A DNA stretch of 62,089 nucleotides from an uncultured Candidatus Saccharibacteria bacterium (GTDB lineage Bacteria > Patescibacteriota > Minisyncoccia > Phycocordibacterales > UBA9973). Positions 9,523 through 61,917 of the stretch are shown here, piece by piece. The position numbers were made by a program, and so were the translations under genes. A model generated the notes under the pieces. That model made no database searches, was not told the origin of the DNA, and saw only the letters and a list, made by a program, of their open reading frames with translations. Position 1 is the first letter of the stretch. Each line of letters starts with the position of its first letter. The DNA is taken from NCBI GenBank assembly GCA_964622505.1, contig CAZUQJ010000003.1, forward strand, positions 1 through 62,089, written 5' to 3'.

Positions 9523-9555
9523 AAAAGGGCTGATGTTAGAGACATCAGCCCTTTT
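9523..9555 (-). terminator. intrinsic terminator
   Basis: AAAAGGGCTGATGT-TAGA-GACATCAGCCCTTTT hairpin just downstream of the 9562..9891 ORF. Confidence 0.6.
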
Positions 9556-10130: not shown

Positions 10131-11267
10131 ATGAAAAAAACAGACGACAAAAACGAATTGGCAGATAGCGCAAGTGCTATCGCCGAGAGCGCAAAAATCG
10201 AGCTTTCAAGCATCGGCAAGATGCTAGAGAAGTCAGACCTTCCCCCACAAGTGGAGGCTCTTGTTGAAGGTGAAGTTATCGCCATCGAGAAGTCAGCAGT
10301 GTATATAAACCTTGCTCCATTTGGAACAGGTATTATTTACGGACGCGAATTTATTAATGCAAAAGACATCATCCGCAAGATCAACATAGGTGATGTAGTG
10401 AAGGCAAAGGTAGTCAGCGCAGAAAATGAAAACGGCTATGTAGAGCTCTCTCTTAAAGAAGCAAAGCAGGCACTGATCTGGAGCGAAGCCGAGAAAGCGA
10501 TCAAGTCAAAGACTTTGATCGAAATCACAGTCAAGGAAGCCAACAAAGGCGGACTTATCCTCGAATGGCAAGGTATCTCTGGATTCCTTCCAGCAAGTCA
10601 GCTCAAGAGCGAGCACTACCCACGTGTAGAAGATTCCGATAAAGACAAGATCTTGAAAGAGTTAAAGAAATTGATCGGCAAGCGCATCAATGTGATCATG
10701 ATCTCAGCGTTGCCAAAAGAAGGCAAGCTTATCTTCTCTGAAAAAGACAACAACCCAGAAGAGCGCAAAGAAATCATTGGCAAATACGCTGTCGGCGACG
10801 AGCTAGCATGTACTATTGCAGGAATCGTAGACTTTGGAATCTTCCTTAAGGTCGAAGACGGTCTCGAAGGACTTGTCCACATCTCCGAAATCGATTGGGG
10901 CTTGGTAGAAGACCCACGAAGCATGTTCAAAGTTGGCGATCCTATCCGCGCAAAGATCATCGAAATCAAAGACGGCAAGATCTCCCTTTCTATCAAAGCT
11001 CTCAAAGACAATCCATGGAAAGAATTTGAAGAGAAGTTGAAAAAGGGCGACATTATTTCTGGAGTAGTAATCAAATTCAACAAACACGGCGCATTGGTGT
11101 CTATCAAGCAAGGTGTAGCAGGATTGGTCCACAACTCAAGCTTCGGTTCTGAAGAGAAATTGAGAAAGACTTTGGAAATGGGCAAAACATACGACTTCCA
11201 AGTTACACTCTTTGAACCAAAAGACCAAAGAATGACCCTAGTCTACCTAGACAAAGAAAATAAATAG
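10131..11267 (+). CDS. rpsA: 30S ribosomal protein S1 (four S1 domains)
   Basis: Repeated S1 motifs (G.V..V....G..V.L..G..G..H.SE); ATG at 10131 preferred over the GTG at 10074, which lies in a leader hairpin. Confidence 0.9.
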   Translation: MKKTDDKNELADSASAIAESAKIELSSIGKMLEKSDLPPQVEALVEGEVIAIEKSAVYINLAPFGTGIIYGREFINAKDIIRKINIGDVVKAKVVSAENENGYVELSLKEAKQALIWSEAEKAIKSKTLIEITVKEANKGGLILEWQGISGFLPASQLKSEHYPRVEDSDKDKILKELKKLIGKRINVIMISALPKEGKLIFSEKDNNPEERKEIIGKYAVGDELACTIAGIVDFGIFLKVEDGLEGLVHISEIDWGLVEDPRSMFKVGDPIRAKIIEIKDGKISLSIKALKDNPWKEFEEKLKKGDIISGVVIKFNKHGALVSIKQGVAGLVHNSSFGSEEKLRKTLEMGKTYDFQVTLFEPKDQRMTLVYLDKENK

Positions 11268-11274
11268 TTCACAT

Positions 11275-11304
11275 AAAAAAGGCCTTCAATTGAAGGCCTT
11301 TTTT
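11275..11304. terminator. bidirectional intrinsic terminator
   Basis: AAAAAAGGCCTTCAATTGAAGGCCTTTTTT. Confidence 0.8.
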
Positions 11305-11316
11305 AATTTAGCTAAA

Positions 11317-11931
11317 TTAATTTGAAAGTGGTTTAATTATCTGCTCTTCAAATTCCTGAACAGTACCACGAAATTTCCACTCATCATTAGTATTACGATT
11401 ACAAACAATTTCCACCATGTCGTTTTCAGTAGGATCAGCAGGTTTACTTTTCTTATAACCCCACTGTGTGTCCCATACTTTTTCATGGCCTTCATTACTA
11501 CTCCTCATCAAGACAAGCAAAGGATCCTTTTGATCAAAGTATTGTTGCAGTCCTGAAATCACTGCTCGTAGCTTACCAAGACGTTTAGAATTTTCATGTT
11601 TCGGATTATCTAAATCGGTAAATGGTATGAGAGTGCCATCCTCAAGCTGAGCACCAATAATTCTGGCCAACCAACATCCATCGGATAAAGGAAATTGAAT
11701 GGATAGAACTTCTCCTGGTGTATCAGGAGAGAAACTCATATTTGAAAAAAATGTTTTTTCAAATATGGAAAGTGCTTCTTTTGCCTGGTCAGTTTTATAA
11801 GGCCAGAATGAAATTTCATACTGAACAGGAAATTCTCTTTCTTTAGCGGTTACCCACTCTGCTACCTTTTTAGGAACTTTTTTCGAATTCGGGTCTGTAT
11901 TAAACAGATGATGTAAATTTAATGTTATCAT
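11317..11931 (-). CDS. hypothetical protein
   Basis: 204-aa ORF, no recognised family. Confidence 0.5.
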   Translation of the reverse strand: MITLNLHHLFNTDPNSKKVPKKVAEWVTAKEREFPVQYEISFWPYKTDQAKEALSIFEKTFFSNMSFSPDTPGEVLSIQFPLSDGCWLARIIGAQLEDGTLIPFTDLDNPKHENSKRLGKLRAVISGLQQYFDQKDPLLVLMRSSNEGHEKVWDTQWGYKKSKPADPTENDMVEIVCNRNTNDEWKFRGTVQEFEEQIIKPLSN

Positions 11932-12010
11932 AATATTGAATTTTTATATTTTGAGTATTATATCATAATTAAAAATATAAGTCAAGCACTCGTAATGGTT
12001 CAATACCTAC

Positions 12011-12036
12011 AAATGTACCAGTCGGACTGGTACATT
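12011..12036. repeat. REP1 palindrome (3' flank of RAYT-1)
   Basis: AAATGTACCAGTCGGACTGGTACATTT; centre TCGGA. Confidence 0.85.
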
Positions 12037-12043
12037 TATATTT

Positions 12044-12718
12044 TTAACTAGATATCCAATTAAAAATCTCCTTTTTAAAGTCTTTTACTTTGTAAAAATA
12101 GTTTAAGAAATTTTCTCTGTCCAATATTCCATTTTCCTTTCTTTGAATTCCTGCGTAGTCTAAATAACTACTCCACTTATAGGAATCCAAGAAAGTGATT
12201 GTCTTTGAGATATCTTTTATTCCCTCTTTTTTCCAATTGGAATTAATTAATTTTACAGGGTTGAGATGTATATATGAAAATAAATATTTTGCTTGGGTAT
12301 CGAGAGACATATGCACAGATTTAAACCTACCTTCAAAAAGTCCCCCGGTTCTATTATATTTTTTGTTGAAATATAATGTATAGGTAGTAAGTAATTTTCT
12401 CATAAATTCAGATATCCGACTTTTCTCAATTTCTTTCCAAAAATCTGATTTGTGACTAGTGGAAACATAAAGATGAAAATGATTTGGCATCAAAACCCAT
12501 GCTCCAATTGAAACAACTGTCTCCCCTCGATCAAAATCGAAAGGGTCTAATTTTATATCCCGGCCAAATTTAAACTTTTTATATGTGTTACAAATAAAAA
12601 GACAATTAACAAAATGTTGATAGTCGGATTCATCTAAAAATATCTTCTGCTTACTGTTGCCTCTACTATAAATGTGATAGTATTCCCCATCTACAAGGGG
12701 TGTTTTTCTAATACCCAT
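12044..12718 (-). CDS. REP-associated tyrosine transposase (RAYT, IS200/IS605 Y1 HUH family), copy 1
   Basis: HUH motif MPNHFHLYV and Tyr motif YIHLNPVK; start set at MGIRK by alignment with the two paralogs (MSIRK, MALRK). Confidence 0.85.
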   Translation of the reverse strand: MGIRKTPLVDGEYYHIYSRGNSKQKIFLDESDYQHFVNCLFICNTYKKFKFGRDIKLDPFDFDRGETVVSIGAWVLMPNHFHLYVSTSHKSDFWKEIEKSRISEFMRKLLTTYTLYFNKKYNRTGGLFEGRFKSVHMSLDTQAKYLFSYIHLNPVKLINSNWKKEGIKDISKTITFLDSYKWSSYLDYAGIQRKENGILDRENFLNYFYKVKDFKKEIFNWISS

Positions 12719-12741
12719 ATTCCCATTGTATAGCAAATCCA

Positions 12742-12772
12742 AAAAATGTACCAGTCCGACTGGTACATTTTT
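12742..12772. repeat. REP1 palindrome (5' flank of RAYT-1), inverted orientation
   Basis: AAAAATGTACCAGTCCGACTGGTACATTTTT; centre TCCGA is the reverse complement of the centre of the copy at 12011. Confidence 0.85.
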
Positions 12773-13330
12773 TTAATTATATATGTTCATCGCTTGTTGG
12801 TGGCCTGCTGTGACTATTGTTTCTATTATTTGCGCGACTTTTTGTGAGATTGGTTCAAGTTGGGATTGTTCTTCTTGCGAGAAATTGCCGAGGACATCGG
12901 GCTTGCGGATAGTGCCAGTTTCGTCGAGGATTGATACGCCTATACGGATACGTGTGAATTCTTTTGTACCCAACGTACTCTGTATCGATTTGACTCCGTT
13001 GTGCCCGCCGTCTCCCCTGTCGTACGAAATTTTTATTATTCCAAGTGACAGATCGATGTCATCGTGAATGACAACAATATTTTCTGGTGTAGTGCCATAT
13101 GTTTTCATTAAGTATGGAATCACGCGCCCGCTCTCGTTCATAAATGTTTGTGGCTTCACGAGCAAGACATCGGTATCATCGATCCGAGTATTTGCCAGTT
13201 CCGATTCCGCATATTTATTTTTCTGCCAACGTGACTCATCGAAAAGTGAATCCAGAATTATCCACGCGACATTATGCCGTGTATTTTTGTATTCAGTGCC
13301 AGTATTTCCAAGTCCAATAATTGTAAACAT
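12773..13330 (-). CDS. pth: peptidyl-tRNA hydrolase
   Basis: GLGNTGTEYKNTRHNV and GHNGVKS motifs. Confidence 0.93.
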   Translation of the reverse strand: MFTIIGLGNTGTEYKNTRHNVAWIILDSLFDESRWQKNKYAESELANTRIDDTDVLLVKPQTFMNESGRVIPYLMKTYGTTPENIVVIHDDIDLSLGIIKISYDRGDGGHNGVKSIQSTLGTKEFTRIRIGVSILDETGTIRKPDVLGNFSQEEQSQLEPISQKVAQIIETIVTAGHQQAMNIYN

Positions 13331-18284: not shown

Positions 18285-18310
18285 TGTGGTCAAAATTTCA
18301 TACACAAAAC

Positions 18311-18337
18311 AAAAGACCCCCGTTTGGGGGTCTTTTG
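18311..18337 (-). terminator. intrinsic terminator of csp
   Basis: AAAAGACCCCCGTTTGGGGGTCTTTTG. Confidence 0.75.
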
Positions 18338-18354
18338 TTTTATCCATAAATGGA

Positions 18355-18552
18355 TTATGCTCGTTGTACGTTTACAGCGTTCATTCCTTTTGGAGAGTTT
18401 TCTGTTTCGAAAGAAACAGCATCGCCTTCGCGAAGTTCGTCAAACGATACTCCGACTAGAGAATTGCTATGGAAGAATAAATCCTTTGCCATACCTTCAC
18501 CAGTGATGAAACCGAAACCTTTGTCAGTAAGCTTTTTTATAGTACCTGTCAT
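18355..18552 (-). CDS. csp: cold-shock protein (CSD)
   Basis: GTIKKLTDKGFGFI (RNP1) and DLFFH (RNP2). Confidence 0.93.
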   Translation of the reverse strand: MTGTIKKLTDKGFGFITGEGMAKDLFFHSNSLVGVSFDELREGDAVSFETENSPKGMNAVNVQRA

Positions 18553-18705
18553 AAAGTTTTTAAATTATTTAATAATATACAAAAATAAAGATATAAGAAA
18601 ATCGACTTGTGTTCTACAATAGCTCTTTTGTCTGTGTACAGAGTACCATATATTGATAGAATAAGTCAATAGGTACGGCGCCCTAGAAAGCGTTATAATA
18701 CAAGC

Positions 18706-29692: not shown

Positions 29693-29834
29693 TTATATAT
29701 TCATTGTTAAATATGCACATTGTGAATGTTGTGAACATTGTACTAGCACATTTTACCATTTTATGGCATACTTTTAAAGTCAATTAAATACGAGACCTAA
29801 CCCTTAAATTTTAATATTTAAGGTATGGTCAAAT

Positions 29835-29936
29835 CCAGCTAAGGTGTTAAAAACCCATCATTGGGGTTACCTTAGCTGGTCATACAGGGAAACTTGTATT
29901 GGATGGCGAAAGCTGTCACCTAGTGGTGGGCTTTTT
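29835..29936 (+). ncRNA. candidate structured RNA (unknown class)
   Basis: 11-bp perfect stem CCAGCTAAGGT/ACCTTAGCTGG enclosing AACCC/GGGTT, then two GAAA-tetraloop hairpins (ATACAGG-GAAA-CTTGTAT; GATGGC-GAAA-GCTGTC with G-U pairs), then CACC-TAGT-GGTG and a T-run. Confidence 0.4.
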
Positions 29937-35085: not shown

Positions 35086-35190
35086 AGTAATTTAAGTAAT
35101 AGCTAATAATTGCCGTATCTGCATTAAAGAAACCGAAGGATAAGGAAATACCTCTTCCCAATTTGTGTTCGTAAGTTGTAGTTTCCAGCG

Positions 35191-35234
35191 AGCATAATAA
35201 AAAAGCACCAGTAATGGTGCTTTTTTATTATGCT
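35191..35234. repeat. perfect 20-bp-stem hairpin (bidirectional terminator-like insulator)
   Basis: AGCATAATAAAAAAGCACCA-GTAA-TGGTGCTTTTTTATTATGCT. Confidence 0.8.
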
Positions 35235-35274
35235 CCCCGGAGCAAGCAAACTGCTTTGCTTGCATGTAGGGAGC
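35232..35274. repeat. nested imperfect palindrome, possible recombinase site
   Basis: GCTCCC-cgga-GCAAGCAAA-ctgc-TTTGCTTGC-atgta-GGGAGC. Confidence 0.5.
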
Positions 35275-42156: not shown

Positions 42157-42176
42157 CTTACAGGTCTTGCCTGTAA
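42157..42176. repeat. REP2 palindrome, copy a
   Basis: CTTACAGGTCTTGCCTGTAA. Confidence 0.8.
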
Positions 42177-42628
42177 AAAAGACTAAAGATAGGGCTCAAA
42201 TATACTGAAATCAAAAACATAGGAGTAATTATTGGACCACCTAAGAAAATAACACTTATTCCATCTTTAACCGTCACCATAAATAGATTATCCTTAGTGA
42301 AAATTTTTCCAAGATCAAATCCCCAGAAATCATAATAACTATCACCATTATAAAAAACACCTAAGCTAATAGTGACTGAAATAAACAACAATACAGAGCA
42401 AATTCCAAATGCTTTAAATTTTTTACGATGTAGTAATATGGAAAGTAAAATTAATAAAGCTGAATTAAAGATATAGTAGATACTTATAAAAATAGGTCCA
42501 TCCCCACTCATCGGAGATGGATGATATGGGTGTGATCCAAAAGCAAAAATTGAAAGCCCTAATGCCCCAATCCCTGAAACTAATAAAAAGTTTGCAAATA
42601 ACCTTCGATTTTTGTTTATTACATTCAT
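42158..42628 (-). CDS. hypothetical polytopic membrane protein
   Basis: 156 aa, four to five TM helices; the last five codons and the stop lie inside REP2a. Confidence 0.55.
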   Translation of the reverse strand: MNVINKNRRLFANFLLVSGIGALGLSIFAFGSHPYHPSPMSGDGPIFISIYYIFNSALLILLSILLHRKKFKAFGICSVLLFISVTISLGVFYNGDSYYDFWGFDLGKIFTKDNLFMVTVKDGISVIFLGGPIITPMFLISVYLSPIFSLFYRQDL

Positions 42629-42671: not shown

Positions 42672-42692
42672 CTTACAGGTCTTGCCTGTAAG
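42672..42692. repeat. REP2 palindrome, copy b
   Basis: CTTACAGGTCTTGCCTGTAAG. Confidence 0.85.
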
Positions 42693-43332
42693 AAAGCCAT
42701 TCAAAAATTTCTTTTTGGAATTTCTCCTTTGTATGGAAATAGTTTGGAAATGCTTTTGTTGCTAAGATTAAACCTTCCTGTCTCGGTATCAGAAGGTAGT
42801 CCAGATAACTTGAATATTTATAATCCTGAAGGAAATCAAGTGTCTTATTTTTGTTTCTTATTCCATTTATTTTCCAATTTTTATCAATCATTTTGACAGG
42901 ATTTAAATGAATATAAGAAAATAAATATTTCAAATACCTATCGTTGTTTGCATGCTCTGATTTAAATTTTCCTTCAAATAAAGAACCAGTTCTTTCGTAT
43001 TTTTTATTATAATACATAGAATACCCAGTCGTGAGCTTTTGCATAAATTTACTTATACTTCCCTCCTTTGTCTGAGTTATTAAAATATGAAAATGGTTTG
43101 GCATTAAACAGTAAGCTCCGATACTGACTAATAAGTTTTTTCTTTCATGGTTAAAGATATCATTCATTCTAATAAATTGAATCTTAAAATTTTTTTCATT
43201 ATTTGAAAGAAACAAAAGTTTAATAAAACGGTCATAATCTTCCTTATCGTGAAAAATTTCCTGTTTACTATTTCCTCTATTATATAAATGATAATACTCA
43301 CCAGGAACAAATGCTGTTTTTCGTATTGACAT
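42673..43332 (-). CDS. REP-associated tyrosine transposase (RAYT), copy 2
   Basis: MPNHFHILI (HUH) and YIHLNPVK; stop lies inside REP2b. Confidence 0.85.
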   Translation of the reverse strand: MSIRKTAFVPGEYYHLYNRGNSKQEIFHDKEDYDRFIKLLFLSNNEKNFKIQFIRMNDIFNHERKNLLVSIGAYCLMPNHFHILITQTKEGSISKFMQKLTTGYSMYYNKKYERTGSLFEGKFKSEHANNDRYLKYLFSYIHLNPVKMIDKNWKINGIRNKNKTLDFLQDYKYSSYLDYLLIPRQEGLILATKAFPNYFHTKEKFQKEIFEWLSYRQDL

Positions 43333-43357
43333 ATATTATATTATATAAAAACTAAAT

Positions 43358-43378
43358 CTTACAGGCAAGACCTGTAAG
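43358..43378. repeat. REP2 palindrome, copy c (inverted)
   Basis: CTTACAGGCAAGACCTGTAAG; centre is the reverse complement of copies a and b. Confidence 0.85.
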
Positions 43379-43388
43379 ATACTTAATT

Positions 43389-52600: not shown

Positions 52601-52854
52601 GTGAGAATGGTATGCCAGTAACGGTAGCCTGCATTATAGACAGCGTCCGCCCGATCATGACCAAGAAGAATGATCGCATGGCATTTATTAAAATATCAGA
52701 CTTTACCGGCACGATCGAAGCTGTTGTATTTTCTAAACTTTTTGAAACACAAAAGGATCTTCTTGTACCCGATACAATCATAGCCATCTCGGGTAAAGTC
52801 ACACTCCGAAACGGGGAAAAAAGTTTGGTTATAGAAAATTTAAAAAAGATATAA
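49669..52854 (+). CDS. dnaE: DNA polymerase III alpha subunit
   Basis: PHP domain FIHLHTHSHYSLLDG, polymerase core, OB fold; 1061 aa. Confidence 0.96.
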   Translation: MDSKFIHLHTHSHYSLLDGLSKVEDMVRIAKEHNMSAMAITDHGNMYGAIEFYKKCNYAGIKPIIGCEVYVAERGRTDKEPGIDNKRYHLILLAKNITGYKNLMKIVTKANLEGYYYKPRVDSELLREHSKGIIALSGCMGGKLSKAILAGNMERAEALVLEHQEIFGKENYFIEIQSHPHIDRDKELRDKLVTLAGKFNIPLVATQDSHYPCKDDHKAHHTLLQVNTGTDGKDSSKFEFSDDDFSLIDEKTALEYFEGYEEAVTNTKMIADMCESYDLELGKAYFPNYVLENGVTAEQELRRLVEEGLIKRSTERSEEVNTRIEYELGIIVSKGYPSYFLVVADLLKFSKEQGILTNTRGSAAGSLVSYLIGITNINPIEYKLPFERFLNPERPSLPDIDMDFADNRRDEVIEYAKQKYGEDKVAQIGTFGTMMAKGSVRDVARALGYPYNVGDRISTMIPMGSQGFAMTINHALEIVPELAEAYEKEKETKEIIDLAKKMEGCVRHVSVHAAGIVIAPTELYNYTPIQYDPKGGHIITQYDMYNIEDVGLPKFDFLGIRNLSILSEAIRLVKLLHNLDIDIEKIPINDKLTYEMLARGETIGLFQLNGSGMTKYLKDLRPTDINDINAMVALYRPGPMAFIPDYIKRKHNPTLVKYLDPRLKEFLETTYGILIYQDDVLLIAVNLAGYTWGEADTFRKAIGKKIPEEMDAQEEKFTKGLIANKMTPAKAKAMWAMIETFAAYGFNKAHAASYGMVAYQTAYMKANFPVEYMCAILTAESGDVEKINEIVAECKKMDIIVLPPDVNESFGGFTVINGSASGDNKTIRFGLYTIKNLGTDIADAIIEERKNKGPFKTLADFFERINHKNLNKKSVEALAKTGAMDNFSERANIIGNLERLLAFNKDARGTNTQDSLFGSIGGLVSTLTLVPLDPATQTEKLAWERELLGLYVSGHPLDAFKEKIEKFGTVIKKIRDESENGMPVTVACIIDSVRPIMTKKNDRMAFIKISDFTGTIEAVVFSKLFETQKDLLVPDTIIAISGKVTLRNGEKSLVIENLKKI

Positions 52855-52856
52855 AA

Positions 52857-52884
52857 CAAAAACCACCTGTATAGGTGGTTTTTG
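52857..52884. terminator. bidirectional intrinsic terminator
   Basis: AAAAACCACCTGTATAGGTGGTTTTTG. Confidence 0.8.
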
Positions 52885-52891
52885 TTTTATA

Positions 52892-53485
52892 TTAAGCTAT
52901 TTCTTGGCTATCATCGATCATTTTCATAATTCTAACTACTTGCTTGGAATACCCAGGGACAATAGAGTCAGGATTGTACTTTTTTAGAATTTGATCACTA
53001 GTCATCTTGTCGTGATAATGTTTAAGCTTCGGGTCATTGCCTCCCAATTTCTTAGAGACAACTTCGATTGATTCATCGATAGACTTAAAGCTAATCTTAC
53101 AAGAACCATATCCAAATGCATTATTAACAATACCTGCTCTTTTACACATAAATCGAGGGTCAGCGAATCCTGTTTCGCGTCCAGAGATTGCTACAAGAAG
53201 ACGGTAATCGATTCCATTCTTGTAAGCTTCGTCTACGAACTTCTGTCCATAGCCAGCCAATGGAGAATTTCTCTTTTCAAGGAAATCATCAATCTCACGA
53301 GCTTGTTCTTTACGTATCGCCTCTTCTTGCGGGGTTATTGCAGGTAGAGTAGAAACGGTAACTATTTTATCAGATTCTGGAGCCATGGGAGCTGTGATAG
53401 CTACCCCTGAGAGTGGCATCGTTACCGCAAAGAGCGGGATGGCCACAAATGACTGCAAGAACTGTGTTATTTGTGTTTTTTTCAT
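52892..53485 (-). CDS. secreted protein, possibly a glucosaminidase or muramidase-like cell-wall hydrolase
   Basis: ATG at 53485 gives a signal peptide; GIDYRLLVAISGRETGF...NNAFGYG resembles the glucosaminidase-domain pattern; weak. Confidence 0.45.
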   Translation of the reverse strand: MKKTQITQFLQSFVAIPLFAVTMPLSGVAITAPMAPESDKIVTVSTLPAITPQEEAIRKEQAREIDDFLEKRNSPLAGYGQKFVDEAYKNGIDYRLLVAISGRETGFADPRFMCKRAGIVNNAFGYGSCKISFKSIDESIEVVSKKLGGNDPKLKHYHDKMTSDQILKKYNPDSIVPGYSKQVVRIMKMIDDSQEIA

Positions 53486-53662
53486 AACGTGCGATTGTGC
53501 TTCGCAAACCCTTAGAGGTATTTCCAAACCTTACGATTTGGGTAAACTAAAAAGCCCTCATATATAATCAATAGATAACATATTCGGACTTACTCTTATA
53601 TAGTAGCATAAAGGATATAAAAAGTCAATAGTTATACTACACATTTTAGTGGTGTCAAACAG

Positions 53663-53691
53663 AAAAAACCCTTATTTTATAAGGGTTTTTT
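53663..53691 (-). terminator. intrinsic terminator downstream of RAYT-3
   Basis: AAAAAACCCTTATTTTATAAGGGTTTTTT. Confidence 0.7.
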
Positions 53692-53813
53692 GTCTATTGA
53701 CCTTTGACATCTATATAAAATAATGGTTAAATCATGCCTATTTTATAAGGGTTAAACCCAAATTTTGACAAAAATAGGACTCTGTTCTATAAAAACACTT
53801 ATTTTTCAAGGAA

Positions 53814-54494
53814 TTACTCTAGTTTCAATTTAAACCAAGTAAGGATATCTTTTTTAAATGCTTGCTCGTCTTTAAAATAGTCTATAAAATTCTCTCTATC
53901 TAAAATGGCACTTTCAGGCCTTTTTCGACCTAAAAAGTCATTATAACTACTCCATCTGTAGGTATCTAAAAACACAAAAGCTTTTCTATTAGCACTAATA
54001 CCCTTCTCTTTCCAATCTGACTGGAATAATTTTACTGGATTTAGATGAATGTAGCTAAACAAGTACTGAGCCTGTGGCTCGCTTGAAATATGAACAGATT
54101 TAAACCTGCCTTCAAACAAACTCCCCGTTCTAGAATACTTTTTATTGAAATACATAGTATAAGCTGTACACAACTTTCTCATAAAAATAGAAATCCCATT
54201 ACTGCCCAAGGACCGTCCTTGGGCAAGAGTTATATACAGATGGAAATGATTTGGCATTAAAACCCAAGCACCTACACATACAAGCTGGTCTCCTCGTTTG
54301 AAATCCCATGCGTCTATTCTTTGCTTAACGATATCTTCTTTAAAATTTACCCTTGTAGTAGAGTTACACAAATAAAGTAATTTTATAAATCTATCATAAT
54401 CTTCGTTATCTAAGAAAATTTCCTGCTTACTATTACCACGGTTAAAAATATGAAAAAATTCTCCTTCTACAAAATTTACTTTACGTAGTGCCAT
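53814..54494 (-). CDS. REP-associated tyrosine transposase (RAYT), copy 3
   Basis: MPNHFHLYI (HUH) and YIHLNPVK; carries a REP3 copy in frame (LAQGRSLG). Confidence 0.85.
   Translation of the reverse strand: MALRKVNFVEGEFFHIFNRGNSKQEIFLDNEDYDRFIKLLYLCNSTTRVNFKEDIVKQRIDAWDFKRGDQLVCVGAWVLMPNHFHLYITLAQGRSLGSNGISIFMRKLCTAYTMYFNKKYSRTGSLFEGRFKSVHISSEPQAQYLFSYIHLNPVKLFQSDWKEKGISANRKAFVFLDTYRWSSYNDFLGRKRPESAILDRENFIDYFKDEQAFKKDILTWFKLKLE
54205..54223. repeat. REP3 palindrome inside the RAYT-3 coding sequence
   Basis: CCCAAGGACCGTCCTTGGG. Confidence 0.85.
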
Positions 54495-54524
54495 TTATAA
54501 AGTATATAACAAAAATTATATTCA

Positions 54525-54543
54525 CCCAAGGACCGTCCTTGGG
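54525..54543. repeat. REP3 palindrome between RAYT-3 and maf
   Basis: CCCAAGGACCGTCCTTGGG. Confidence 0.85.
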
Positions 54544-54545
54544 CA

Positions 54546-55115
54546 TTATGCTACCTGTTCTATTAAATTTTTTGTTATTTCTTTTGGTAAGCCAATAACA
54601 CTGTCTCTTGTTCCTTGTATTTCTTTGATGTGACTTACCCATTTATCACCCTGGATAGTAAAGCCACCAGCATAGTTAAAAAGCGAGCCGTCTTTTATAA
54701 AAGCATCTATGTCTTCTTCTGTAAAAGAATTGTTAAAATAAATTTTAGCTACATCAACTTTTTCTCTGGTTTTACCTGTTTGTAAGTTTGTAACAATGAC
54801 AGAAGTTACTGTTTCAGCAGGATACGTATTATACCCTCTTAAAAATTCTCGTGCTTCTTTTTCATTTTCTGGTTTTTCTCTTATTTGTCCATTCCAAACA
54901 ACAACCTGATCGGATGTAATTAAAATCGCCGGTTCAGAAATTCTTTCTTTTAATGCTTCAGCTTTAGCTCTCGCAATAACCAATACTAAATCTTTTGGAT
55001 TGTCTAAACGAATAGCCTTTTCATCTATATTTGCAGGAACAATATTAAACTCAATACCCATTTCTTCGAGCATGAGCTTTCTGCCTTTAGATTGTGAACC
55101 TAATATTATTTTCAT
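54546..55115 (-). CDS. maf: Maf-like nucleoside triphosphate pyrophosphatase
   Basis: MKIILGSQSKGRKLML...YAGGFTIQG; the ATG at 55115 avoids overlap with secA and with REP3. Confidence 0.88.
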   Translation of the reverse strand: MKIILGSQSKGRKLMLEEMGIEFNIVPANIDEKAIRLDNPKDLVLVIARAKAEALKERISEPAILITSDQVVVWNGQIREKPENEKEAREFLRGYNTYPAETVTSVIVTNLQTGKTREKVDVAKIYFNNSFTEEDIDAFIKDGSLFNYAGGFTIQGDKWVSHIKEIQGTRDSVIGLPKEITKNLIEQVA

Positions 55116-55122
55116 TTTATTG

Positions 55123-55141
55123 CCCAAGGACCGTCCTTGGG
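55123..55141. repeat. REP3 palindrome between secA and maf
   Basis: CCCAAGGACCGTCCTTGGG. Confidence 0.85.
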
Positions 55142-55144
55142 TGA

Positions 55145-57598
55145 TTACTCTTTGCCGTGGCACTTTTTGTACTTCTTGCCACTTCCACAATGGCATGGGT
55201 CGTTGCGACCTACCTTTGGGTCAGCGTTGGAGGTCCCTTTCCCTTGCTCTTCGCCTAGATTGAGTATGATTTGAGGCTTTTCTTCTATTATCTGCTCTGC
55301 CGACTCGCCTTGTAAATGCATTGTTTTGATTAGTGATGCAACTTGCTCTCGGAATAAGGCTTCCATTTCTTTAAATAGATGCAAGCCTTCCTTCTTGTAT
55401 TCTATAAGAGGCTCACGCTGGCCATAGGCACGCAAGTTGACCGAGCTCCGAGTGTACTCCATAGTTTCGAGGTGCTCTACCCATAGAGTATCAGTAACAT
55501 GAAGAGCCACACGACGGACAGTTTCGAAGAATGGTCCGTCACCAAAATTGGTACGCTTCTCAGCAACAACAGGAGATAGATCCGGATATATAGACTCCAA
55601 TTCCTTTATAAATTCTTCTAGATGAGCAACGTCTCCGTTGAGCATAAGCTTGCGACGAGCGTATACAGTATTGCGCTGATGGTTCATAACATTATCATAT
55701 TCCAGAGTATGCTTGCGAGAGTCGAAGTTGAATCCTTCAATCTTTGCTTGTGCACTCTCCAACGAACGAGAGATGAAGCTGTTTTGGATCGGCTGGTCTT
55801 CGGGTATACCGAAACGACCCATCATAGTCTTGATTCTTTCACTGCCGAATACGCGCATGAGGTCGTCTTCGAGAGATACAAAGAATTGGGTCTCGCCTGG
55901 GTCACCCTGACGACCCGCACGGCCTCGGAGCTGGTTGTCGATACGGCGAGCTTCGTGGCGCTCGGTACCGAGCACAAACAATCCACCAAGCTCTTTGACT
56001 TCATTAAAAGAGCTTTCGTTGTATGGTACACCGCCGAGTTTGATATCAACTCCACGCCCTGCCATGTTGGTAGCAATTGTAACTGCACCCTTGCGTCCTG
56101 CATTGGCTGTGATCTCACCTTCGCTTTCATGGTTCTTTGCATTTAGTACTATATGAGGTACACCCTCTTGCTTGAGATATGCCGACAGCAACTCGTTGCG
56201 CTCGATCGATACAGTACCGATCAAAACCGGCTGGCCTTTCTCGTTGAGCTCTTTGACTTTCTTTGCTATCGCCTTCCATTTACCCTTTTCTGTTTGGTAG
56301 ATCAAGTCGTTGCTGTCGATACGAGCAATAGGCCGGTGTGTCGGCACAACAGCAACATCGAGTCCATATACTTTCAGAAACTCTTCTTTGGAAGTCTCGG
56401 CCGTACCGGTCATACCAGAAAGCTTCTTATAAAATTTAAAATAGTTTTGGAATGTAATACTTGCCACAGCTCGAGTCTCTTTTTGGATCTTTACTCCCTC
56501 CTTTGCCTCTATGGCTTGGTGCAGACCCTCGCTCCAGCGACGGCCAGGTTGCAACCGGCCTGTAAAGGCGTCAACAATGATGATCTCGCCATCTTTGACA
56601 ACGTAATCTTTATTTTCTTCATACAAAGCTCGGGCTCGGACAGCAGTTTCTAAATGGTGGACATACTTGATGCCCTTTTCTGTATAAATATTTGTTATAC
56701 CAAGCAGTGTCTCAGCTTTGGTGATACCCACATCGGATAGTGATATTGCCTTTAGCTTTTCATCCACAGTATAATCCACCTCTTTCACTAGTTCTTTTGA
56801 GATATCAGCAAACTTGTAGTATAGATCCTCAGAATCTTCTGCGGGGCTTGAGATAATAAGTGGTGTACGAGACTCATCGATCAGGATAGAGTCGACCTCG
56901 TCGACTATCGCGTAGTGATGCGGACGCTGAGAGACCTCGTCGATAGTGCGAGCTAGGTTGTCACGCAAATAGTCGAAGCCGAATTCATTGTTGGTACCAT
57001 AAGTAATGTCTGCATTGTATGCATCCTTTCGACTGACAGGGCGCAAGCATTCATACAATACTTTGAAAGATGCAGTTTCATCTTCACCCTCTTTGGAAAC
57101 GTGCTCGCTATCATAAACATATGAAGTGTTTTGTGAATTCACAACGCCGACAGACATACCGAGTAATGAAAAGATCGGTGCCATCCACACAGCGTCACGG
57201 CGAGAAAGATAATCGTTGACTGTCACAATATGCACACCCTTTGCTTCAAGCGCATTTAAATACGCAGGAAGTGTTGCAACGAGTGTCTTGCCTTCACCAG
57301 TACGCATCTCGGCAATGATACCTCTGTGTAAAATAATTCCTCCTACAAGTTGTACGTCGTAGTGCCGCTCATTGCGAGTCCTATGAGCTGCTTCACGCAC
57401 CAATGCGTATGCTTCCGATAGTATGTCGTCAAGCGACTCACCTGTACTCAGGCGTTCTTTGAATTGTGCTGTTTTTAATATGAAATCTTCTGTTTTGAGC
57501 TCTTTCATCTCCCCTTCTAGCTCATTGATGCGGGCCACAATTCCCTTGGTATTTTTGATTATTTTGGTTGTTTCGTCTCCGAAAATTGATTTAAACAT
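55145..57598 (-). CDS. secA: preprotein translocase ATPase SecA
   Basis: MRTGEGKT Walker A, DEAD-like motor, C-terminal zinc motif CHCGSGKKYKKCHG; TGCTAAAAT lies 9 nt upstream of the ATG (57608..57616). Confidence 0.97.
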   Translation of the reverse strand: MFKSIFGDETTKIIKNTKGIVARINELEGEMKELKTEDFILKTAQFKERLSTGESLDDILSEAYALVREAAHRTRNERHYDVQLVGGIILHRGIIAEMRTGEGKTLVATLPAYLNALEAKGVHIVTVNDYLSRRDAVWMAPIFSLLGMSVGVVNSQNTSYVYDSEHVSKEGEDETASFKVLYECLRPVSRKDAYNADITYGTNNEFGFDYLRDNLARTIDEVSQRPHHYAIVDEVDSILIDESRTPLIISSPAEDSEDLYYKFADISKELVKEVDYTVDEKLKAISLSDVGITKAETLLGITNIYTEKGIKYVHHLETAVRARALYEENKDYVVKDGEIIIVDAFTGRLQPGRRWSEGLHQAIEAKEGVKIQKETRAVASITFQNYFKFYKKLSGMTGTAETSKEEFLKVYGLDVAVVPTHRPIARIDSNDLIYQTEKGKWKAIAKKVKELNEKGQPVLIGTVSIERNELLSAYLKQEGVPHIVLNAKNHESEGEITANAGRKGAVTIATNMAGRGVDIKLGGVPYNESSFNEVKELGGLFVLGTERHEARRIDNQLRGRAGRQGDPGETQFFVSLEDDLMRVFGSERIKTMMGRFGIPEDQPIQNSFISRSLESAQAKIEGFNFDSRKHTLEYDNVMNHQRNTVYARRKLMLNGDVAHLEEFIKELESIYPDLSPVVAEKRTNFGDGPFFETVRRVALHVTDTLWVEHLETMEYTRSSVNLRAYGQREPLIEYKKEGLHLFKEMEALFREQVASLIKTMHLQGESAEQIIEEKPQIILNLGEEQGKGTSNADPKVGRNDPCHCGSGKKYKKCHGKE

Positions 57599-58261: not shown

Positions 58262-58385
58262 AAGCAGTCGTTCGGTGTTTTCAATCAGCGGCTGCGCTCA
58301 CATAGGCATTTGTGTTGGGGTTAGCACCCGCTGATTAAAGACACAGAACAAAAAATACCCCCTAGGCGGGGGTATTTTTTGTTGT
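58262..58385 (+). ncRNA. candidate small RNA with a 17-bp closing stem
   Basis: Extended -10 TGTTATATA at 58247..58255; GTGTTTTCAATCAGCGG pairs with CCGCTGATTAAAGACAC (one G-U, one mismatch) around a 35-nt loop; ends at terminator ATACCCCC-tagg-CGGGGGTATTTTTT. Confidence 0.35.
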
Positions 58386-61883: not shown

Positions 61884-61917
61884 AAAAAAGACGCTTCATT
61901 TCTGAAGCGTCTTTTTT
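61884..61917 (+). terminator. intrinsic terminator
   Basis: AAAAAAGACGCTTCATTTCTGAAGCGTCTTTTTT. Confidence 0.8.

Follow-up and report, generated by a model that had tools for sequence, protein, structure and literature searches.

REP-RAYT systems, which pair repetitive extragenic palindromic (REP) hairpins with a REP-associated tyrosine transposase (RAYT), are known almost exclusively from work on Proteobacteria, whose genomes contain hundreds of the repeats. Such systems, also termed REPtrons, have been described in E. coli (YafM), Pseudomonas, and Stenotrophomonas (PMC2817692; Bertels & Rainey 2011, PMC3116915; structure 4ER8), and their repeats usually exceed 100 copies per genome (Nunvar 2010, PMC2817692). 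Multiple private REPtrons in a single genome, in-frame REPs within tnpAREP genes, intragenic REPs, and Rickettsia palindromic elements (RPEs) are already known (PMC6006769, PMC3733652). The searchable literature contains no paper linking REP-RAYT systems to Patescibacteria. Here, we describe three RAYT-like genes, RAYT-1 to RAYT-3 (R1, R2, and R3), and their respective private palindromes P1, P2, and P3 in a 62,089-nt stretch of an uncultured Candidatus Saccharibacteria bacterium (contig CAZUQJ010000003.1; hereafter the window). Each unit is probably REPtron-like, i.e., composed of a RAYT-class HUH/Y1 single-stranded DNA nuclease-ligase and a cognate hairpin of 19-33 nt, a reading to which we assign a probability of about 0.7. 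Flanking hairpins, often with a further in-frame copy inside the gene, are the standard and so far undescribed layout of a very large gene family in ultra-small bacteria (Patescibacteria).

The traits that these units share with described REPtrons are (i) a single diverged HUH/Y1 gene with a Y---NP motif, flanked by short palindrome copies, (ii) multiple paralogs within a genome, every one having a palindrome family of its own, (iii) co-evolution of protein and hairpin, (iv) vertical inheritance under purifying selection, and (v) a best structural match to 4ER8. The patescibacterial units differ in lacking the GT[AG]G foot, in the random orientation of their hairpin pairs, in a density of ~1 copy per 85 kb as opposed to hundreds per genome, and in a protein of ~225 residues with a ~70-residue C-terminal extension that scores below the NCBIfam equivalog cutoff.

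All three genes are intact and lie on the minus strand: R1 (12044..12718; 224 residues) downstream of pth, R2 (42673..43332; 219 residues), and R3 (53814..54494; 226 residues). They share PNHFH and YIHLNPVK, as the first-pass annotation had stated, and their pairwise identity of 54-56% fits the low-copy, low-identity pattern of RAYTs. PNHFH and the tyrosine of YIHLNP are invariant in the three paralogs and 59 family members; in the AlphaFold model of R3 (AF2, mean confidence pLDDT 88), the former maps to strand 83-90 and the latter to helix 139-156. YIHLNP, present in R1, R2, and R3, conforms to the Y---NP signature of class 2 (RAYT), as opposed to the Y---Q motif of IS200 transposases (Quentin et al. 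2018, PMC6006769). The best NCBIfam match is REP_Tyr_transpos, with 44, 50.9, and 45 bits for R1, R2, and R3, respectively. Pfam Y1_Tnp (PF01797; gathering threshold 23 bits) scores R2 at 43.4 bits and R3 at 18.8 bits and returns no match for R1. Foldseek with the R3 model retrieves the complex of E. coli TnpAREP with its REP hairpin (4ER8) as the best match (E = 4.6e-7), followed by the TnpA proteins of ISDra2, IS608, and IS200 at 1e-4 to 1e-3. The motif, the best NCBIfam match, and the best predicted fold thus support the earlier reading of these genes as RAYTs: the proteins are RAYT-like class 2 enzymes and not ordinary IS200 TnpA.

Each gene has a palindrome of its own, in agreement with the earlier claim: at ≤3 mismatches, no further copy of P1, P2, or P3 exists in the window, and none arises by chance in 100 shuffles. 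All copies lie within ~700 bp of their own RAYT gene and fold as stable single-strand hairpins (z -3.6 to -8.4). An Rfam search at the hairpins returns no family match. The hairpin regions are matched without differences by Logan assemblies of two wastewater metagenome runs and hence are not assembly artefacts.

The two P1 copies are perfect palindromes that bracket R1 in inverted orientation, with centre bases G and C. The downstream copy, AAATGTACCAGTCGGACTGGTACATTT (12011..12037; core 12015-12033), has a single-stranded folding energy of -11.1 kcal/mol (z = -6.4) and is flagged as terminator-like. The upstream copy (12741..12773; core 12748-12766; -14 kcal/mol, z = -8.4) lies directly against the pth stop codon and forms a 16-bp stem accompanied by A and T runs. 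P2 likewise brackets R2 in inverted orientation, with CTTACAGGTCTTGCCTGTAAG downstream (42672..42692, plus strand) and its inverted counterpart upstream (43356..43380, core 43358-43378, minus strand); the downstream copy supplies the last five codons of R2, YRQDL, together with the stop codon. The first-pass annotation had correctly recognized the inverted pairs of units 1 and 2 but overlooked a third P2 copy with one mismatch (42157..42177, plus strand), which occupies the 4-nt gap after gdh. This copy provides the same YRQDL ending and stop codon to a 156-residue membrane open reading frame (ORF; 42158..42628, minus strand) that matches no Pfam family and is enclosed by two same-orientation P2 copies, a one-gene bracket also seen in related loci. 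An R2 ortholog with 73.5% identity (locus L061) retains an identical P2 and the same SYRQDL tail followed by a stop.

For unit 3, the earlier note had described the private palindrome and missed both that one copy lies in-frame within R3 and that all three P3 copies have one orientation. The internal copy (54203..54225; core 54205-54223) encodes AQGRSLG, which in the R3 model forms the loop that leads from the HUH strand (83-90) to helix 97-119 and has the lowest core pLDDT. A second copy (54525..54543) is located between the maf stop codon and the R3 start, and a third (55123..55141) in the 28-nt spacer from the secA stop to the maf start. These two copies bracket maf (54546..55115, minus strand; Pfam Maf, 148 bits). 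The window search found no P3 copy downstream of R3. Homology places the maf start at 55115, whereas the longest ORF begins at 55196 and includes both the P3 hairpin and the secA end; hairpins inflate ORF calls at maf and also in P0002.

The same layout recurs across the family. One metagenome scan yielded 80 loci whose family members have 48-69% identity to R1; 75 of these loci are usable because both gene flanks are present. An exact stretch of at least 12 nt is common to both flanks in 67 of the 75, and a matching perfect hairpin pair surrounds the gene in 57, with one hairpin upstream of the start codon by a median of 23 nt and the other 0-45 nt past the gene end. The downstream hairpin overlaps the stop codon in 26 of these 57 loci, as it does in R2. 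Among 267 other ORFs of similar size from the same loci, only four have matched flanks, all of which are second RAYT paralogs or a neighbor gene; no unrelated control ORF carries a matched flanking hairpin pair. In three other genomes with two-paralog loci, the second paralog bears hairpins unlike those of the first, which independently replicates the rule of one private palindrome per gene.

Opposite orientation of the flanking copies, reported at first pass, holds for units 1 and 2 but not as a rule: across the family, 29 pairs are direct and 27 inverted. An inverted pair was considered as a REPtron diagnostic and rejected since centre bases and loops switch orientation freely, R1 orthologs being no exception. 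In four loci, a direct repeat of the left arm precedes the downstream hairpin on its 5' side (arm-arm-loop-arm'; L007 10700-10737, L014 3417-3455, L029 10706-10753, and L035 2834-2870) and is present two times in L029; the repeat could be the trace of slippage or could provide guide-like or alternative pairing. On both sides of gene 599-1240 in L070, a fusion of two inverted P2-type units makes up a 33-41-nt palindrome, CAGGTCTTGCCTGTCAGGCAAGACCTG, a REPIN-like doublet. Closely spaced hairpin doublets also occur in L010, L014, L021, L031, L055, and L058.

At E ≤ 1e-5, Patescibacteria metagenomes contain more than 7,851 clusters of the family (90% identity), and at E ≤ 1e-30 there are 408 clusters (50% identity). 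The named family members come from Patescibacteria; a cluster look-up of distant members gave almost no names. The earlier view that such an arrangement is unexpected in an organism inferred to be streamlined therefore does not hold. The system is REPtron-like, low in copy number, devoid of the GTAG foot, and common in the candidate phyla radiation, i.e., typical of the lineage and not exceptional.

The hairpin apex follows protein phylogeny. The apex ..GTCSGAC.. accompanies R1-like proteins and ..GGTCTTGCC.. R2-like proteins, while ..GACSGTC.., ..GCCTTGC.., and ..CCSGG.. go with other clades. Proteins of same-apex pairs are 63.5% identical versus 56.6% for different-apex pairs, a difference reached in 0 of 2000 permutations. 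The lower stem is common to only 26 of 206 same-apex pairs, which indicates that the apex is kept within a clade, whereas the lower stem changes yet stays paired. P1 is identical beside RAYT orthologs of 91, 77, 73, and 66% identity found in other metagenomes and in three GTDB species. The earlier claim of mutually specific REP-RAYT pairs is accordingly borne out as far as each paralog has its own hairpin, in three other genomes as well, and the apex tracks the clade; in the window and related loci, on the other hand, the hairpins are not abundant dispersed REPs.

The gene itself appears to be inherited vertically. R1 compared with its L087 ortholog (91% identical) gives a dN/dS of 0.045 (dS 1.35), and the 19-nt hairpin is the same except for the centre base, whereas the adjacent spacer is unalignable. 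An R1-type gene adjoins pth in the window, in L087 (91%), and in L088 (77%), which argues for vertical inheritance. The P1 pair of the L088 ortholog is direct, unlike the inverted pair in the window. The upstream P1 copy of L088 (4154-4204) is lengthened to a perfect 25-bp stem; palindromes thus grow symmetrically past the conserved core. A single low-coverage 364-nt contig of a ~85% identical relative (run X3) joins position 11258 to 12815, so that this relative would be without ORF204 and the whole R1 unit; the support is weak, with 36 nt on one side, and the contig is not relied on here.

This evidence bears on the possibility that each unit is an autonomous insertion sequence of the IS200/IS605 type, with the palindromes as left and right ends and the whole unit transposing. 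Hairpins do lie at both gene ends, and half of the pairs are direct, like the ends of IS608. Location also varies over longer distances: in two more distant species (L006 and L003/L004), a P1/R1-type unit resides not at pth, as in the window, L087, and L088, but between secA and a homolog of a 211-residue ORF, a site that in the window (52892-57598) holds R3/P3 and maf. Different units at the same site across species imply that units change place or replace one another over longer times, and the secA/211-residue ORF site may be a recurrent landing or replacement site. Among close relatives, by contrast, position is kept and purifying selection is strong. Furthermore, there are no near-identical copies; the window paralogs are 54-56% identical and have different ends, and a second family member occurs in only 3 of 82 loci (L022, L057, and L074), always diverged, at 37-61% identity to the best-matching window query per hit. 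The motif is Y---NP and not the Y---Q of IS200 (PMC6006769), the same perfect palindrome stands at both ends instead of distinct imperfect left and right ends, and pair orientation is random. An internal hairpin copy, described below, would split the element in two, and solitary hairpins exist without the gene. Viral contigs contain only relatives of 22-27% identity, with no family member and no sign of phage carriage. Taken together, these observations make an autonomous insertion sequence highly improbable.

The hairpin is not confined to the flanks. In 40 of the 57 hairpin-paired loci, a third copy lies inside the gene, in-frame and with 0-2 mismatches relative to the flanking copies. Its position, ~270 nt from the gene start, immediately follows the HUH strand, as in R3. 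The distance from the internal-hairpin centre to the HUH codon has a register that is fixed within clades and differs between clades by non-multiples of three, which indicates that the internal copy was re-inserted or replaced repeatedly. A single ancestral internal insertion is disfavored on the same grounds. The R2-like clade has no internal copy; in R1 and a few others, all that is left is a relic. In R1, the decayed copy AGTCACAAATCAGATTTTTGG (12437..12457, minus strand) encodes SHKSDFW and no longer folds; relative to the internal palindromes of L008 and L011 (TCACAAGTCGGACTTGTGG, encoding SHKSDLW), which are intact, it has 4 changes in 19 positions.

Copies also occur farther afield, at low density. 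A search of 513 kb of flanking DNA around the 57 hairpin-paired loci recovered ten extra copies, of which five are at a distance of 650-1300 nt from the RAYT gene, one or two small genes away (18% expected; p = 0.02), and the other five lie 3.7-5.7 kb away, which amounts to 5 in 423 kb or ~1 per 85 kb. This density would give roughly ten copies per family in a ~1 Mb genome, far below classical REPs, and the zero distant copies in the window are compatible with it. A scan of GTDB species-representative genomes, a set without the source genome, with a P1 21-mer identified one metagenome-assembled genome (JBAYHJ01) in which P1 flanks a RAYT gene and two solitary copies reside on other contigs, and another (JBBABB01) in which P1 occurs alone. 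Solitary in-frame copies are present in murE and pheT, where they coincide with loops that exceed those of homologs by 5-6 residues, and in a class II tRNA synthetase-like ORF (likely proS), where length is unchanged. The L057 MurE (~251-430) has a longer loop, RAGNASPRPSGRG, at the place where the L002 MurE carries an in-frame P1; this may be another hairpin-derived insert. As to whether the palindromes are dispersed REPs or simple insertion sequence ends, a distinction drawn at first pass, the answer is partial: the solitary copies away from RAYT genes in relatives show that the hairpins are more than element ends, and in the window all copies lie at most ~700 bp from their gene.

Alternatively, the hairpins may serve mainly as host terminators or attenuators that insulate and throttle a potentially dangerous nuclease gene, perhaps at the RNA level, in which case they would be kept alike by gene conversion and not moved by the enzyme. 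Many copies have A and T runs and resemble bidirectional terminators, and copies are placed exactly in the spacers of co-directional gene strings. There is no promoter-like site upstream of R1, which would leave R1 expression to read-through of P1 after pth, and the 26 of 57 downstream copies that overlap the stop codon fit such a role as well. Yet ordinary genes of the same loci never have matched flanking palindromes, the apex covaries with the protein clade, and the same sequence is found in-frame in murE, pheT, and likely proS, far from any RAYT gene. Internal copies are translated and lack T runs, both orientations occur and would produce different RNA loops, and no Rfam family matches. 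We consider host regulation unlikely as the main explanation, although a secondary terminator role of the hairpins is likely.

The brackets around single genes raise a third alternative, in which same-orientation hairpins mark single-gene cassettes that RAYT excises and reinserts in trans as single-stranded circles, in the manner of IS608. The 156-residue ORF between same-orientation P2 copies and maf between same-orientation P3 copies have this arrangement. In related loci, five of the ten extra copies, at 650-1300 nt, are offset from the RAYT gene by exactly one or two small genes (p = 0.02). The bracketed genes are small accessory-type ORFs, and in L087 an extra 314-residue ORF separates pth from the unit. 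However, the same pattern is predicted if copies hop locally and land in the closest spacer of a gene-dense genome, and no bracketed gene is seen in two places. Since, in addition, maf is a conserved housekeeping-type gene and the sample is small, we rate movable cassettes as suggestive but very unlikely.

The REPtron-like reading entails a mechanism whose binding and cleavage steps, single-strand dependence, and preference for nearby sites we infer from the observed architecture, covariation, conservation, and fold. The enzyme would recognize the hairpin extruded from single-stranded DNA, mainly via the conserved upper stem and apex, and would cut at the hairpin foot through a phosphotyrosine link. 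Occasionally, it would paste a hairpin copy into a new single-stranded site, mostly nearby, which would explain the flanking copies, those in the permissive loop-coding segment that follows the HUH motif, and those one gene away. Of the rare distant copies, the only survivors may be those in tiny spacers, those at the 3' ends of genes, where they donate stop codons, and those in-frame in surface loops. Continued activity or selection for recognition would keep the copies of one unit identical while units diverge, such that three paralogs can coexist without cross-talk. The RAYT-like genes themselves would be stable, vertically inherited, and under purifying selection, as distinct from jumping insertion sequences. 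A broader version of this mechanism envisages an active, self-referential system in which (i) the in-frame copy of the enzyme's own hairpin acts as a feedback or homogenization device, (ii) single-gene cassettes (the 156-residue ORF and maf) move in an IS608-like manner, and (iii) stray 5-9-residue loops and new stop codons arise in essential proteins, feeding protein insertions and gene-content flux of tiny genomes. This combination appears doubtful.

Several observations weigh against the REPtron-like reading. The E. coli enzyme TnpAREP is thought to position cleavage via a GT[AG]G guide foot. The window hairpins do not have this canonical 5' foot; theirs are AATGTACC, CTTACAGG, and GCCCAAGG, and across the family they are mostly TTCCC.. 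or TTGC... The dispersal to more than 100 copies per genome reported for REPtrons (Nunvar 2010) has no parallel here, with no window copy beyond ~700 bp and 5 per 423 kb in relatives, a low copy number that implies rare or mostly purged dissemination. None of R1-R3 (44-51 bits) reaches the 80-bit equivalog cutoff of NF047646, and PDB sequence searches with profiles of 3 and 59 sequences return nothing significant (E = 0.4). Because many hairpins resemble intrinsic terminators, a host function could explain part of their conservation. Lastly, the action of the enzyme on its hairpins is predicted from layout, covariation, and fold. The first-pass identification of a REP/RAYT arrangement is thus sustained with respect to the RAYT-like protein and its own flanking hairpins, and qualified by the low copy number and the missing foot.

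Within the described diversity of these transposases, the family combines features of two subclasses. Subclass 2.4 (Quentin et al. 2018, PMC6006769), found in Cyanobacteria and Bacteroidetes, has an in-frame REP between HuH and Y, as do R3 and 40 of the 57 relatives. Its proteins carry WQ and YIxNNP motifs, have a median length of 194 residues and no C-terminal extension, and are accompanied by long or "double-foot" GT[AG]G REPs, whereas the window family has FE and YIHLNP, ~225 residues, and a WSSY-containing tail. Subclass 2.1 (Bertels Group 1, or TIRYT, the enzyme of TIRtrons) shares NH[YF]H, F[QE], Y[IV]HLNP, a length of ~238 residues, and an SS in the proximal tail (PMC3733652; Quentin 2018). 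Low-copy flanking repeats and several differently decorated paralogs, of which Koribacter versatilis has three, are further points of likeness. As reported, subclass 2.1 has no REP-like hairpins, only terminal inverted repeats GGGGWSAS, as well as C-terminal helix-turn-helix or DnaA_C-like domains. In R1-R3, no Pfam match beyond Y1_Tnp is found, and the flank hairpins are without the GGGGWSAS consensus; perfect hairpins in the flanks and an internal copy set the window family apart. The motif set, length, and WSSY tail thus resemble subclass 2.1 and the in-frame hairpin resembles subclass 2.4, a comparison made by inspection. Neither a Patescibacteria-wide family of this kind nor its layout of three hairpins with concerted change, very low copy number, random orientation, and a missing GTAG foot was found in the searchable literature.

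Two other groups are less close. TnpA of IS200/IS605 elements (IS608, ISDra2) shares the HUH/Y1 fold and recognition of a hairpin beside the gene; its Y---Q motif, ~150-residue length, imperfect distinct ends on one strand, near-identical multiple copies, and tnpB are not seen here. RPEs and intragenic REPs (Di Nocera 2013) are similar in that in-frame palindromes occur in essential genes of a reduced genome. RPEs differ in being ~100-150 bp long and having no known cognate transposase, as opposed to the 19-27-nt units with an identifiable cognate enzyme described here.

Thousands of family members in the most gene-dense bacteria known retain the pairing of enzyme and hairpin at minimal copy number. 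The hairpin is placed inside the enzyme gene, and hairpins are reused to provide stop codons, terminators, and loops of proteins. The natural covariation, with a clade-fixed apex, a free lower stem, and three exclusive pairs in 45 kb, constitutes a data set for how Y1 enzymes read hairpins, and the family bears on the question of whether RAYTs are domesticated or still mobile. In practical terms, RAYT-like genes of this kind are now annotated as just "transposase" or "hypothetical", and ORF calls are lengthened by their hairpins, for example through the YRQDL tails and the wrong upstream start of maf.

The window harbors other structured elements. Many intergenic hairpins are unique, perfect, and unrelated to P1-P3; their 14-21-bp stems are set between A and T runs, and they resemble bidirectional intrinsic terminators and are located at 9523-9555, 11274-11305, 18306-18341, 35190-35235, 52849-52892, 58347-58383, and 61884-61917. 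A full-length match to LOOT RNA (Rfam RF03000; 81.6 bits versus a gathering threshold of 46.4) lies at 29794-29917 on the plus strand. A gene for a 66-residue cold-shock protein occupies 18359-18559 on the minus strand, where the listing of ORFs at 80 residues gives only a spurious plus-strand ORF; the conserved KGFGFI-coding stretch of this gene explains a depth spike in public contigs.

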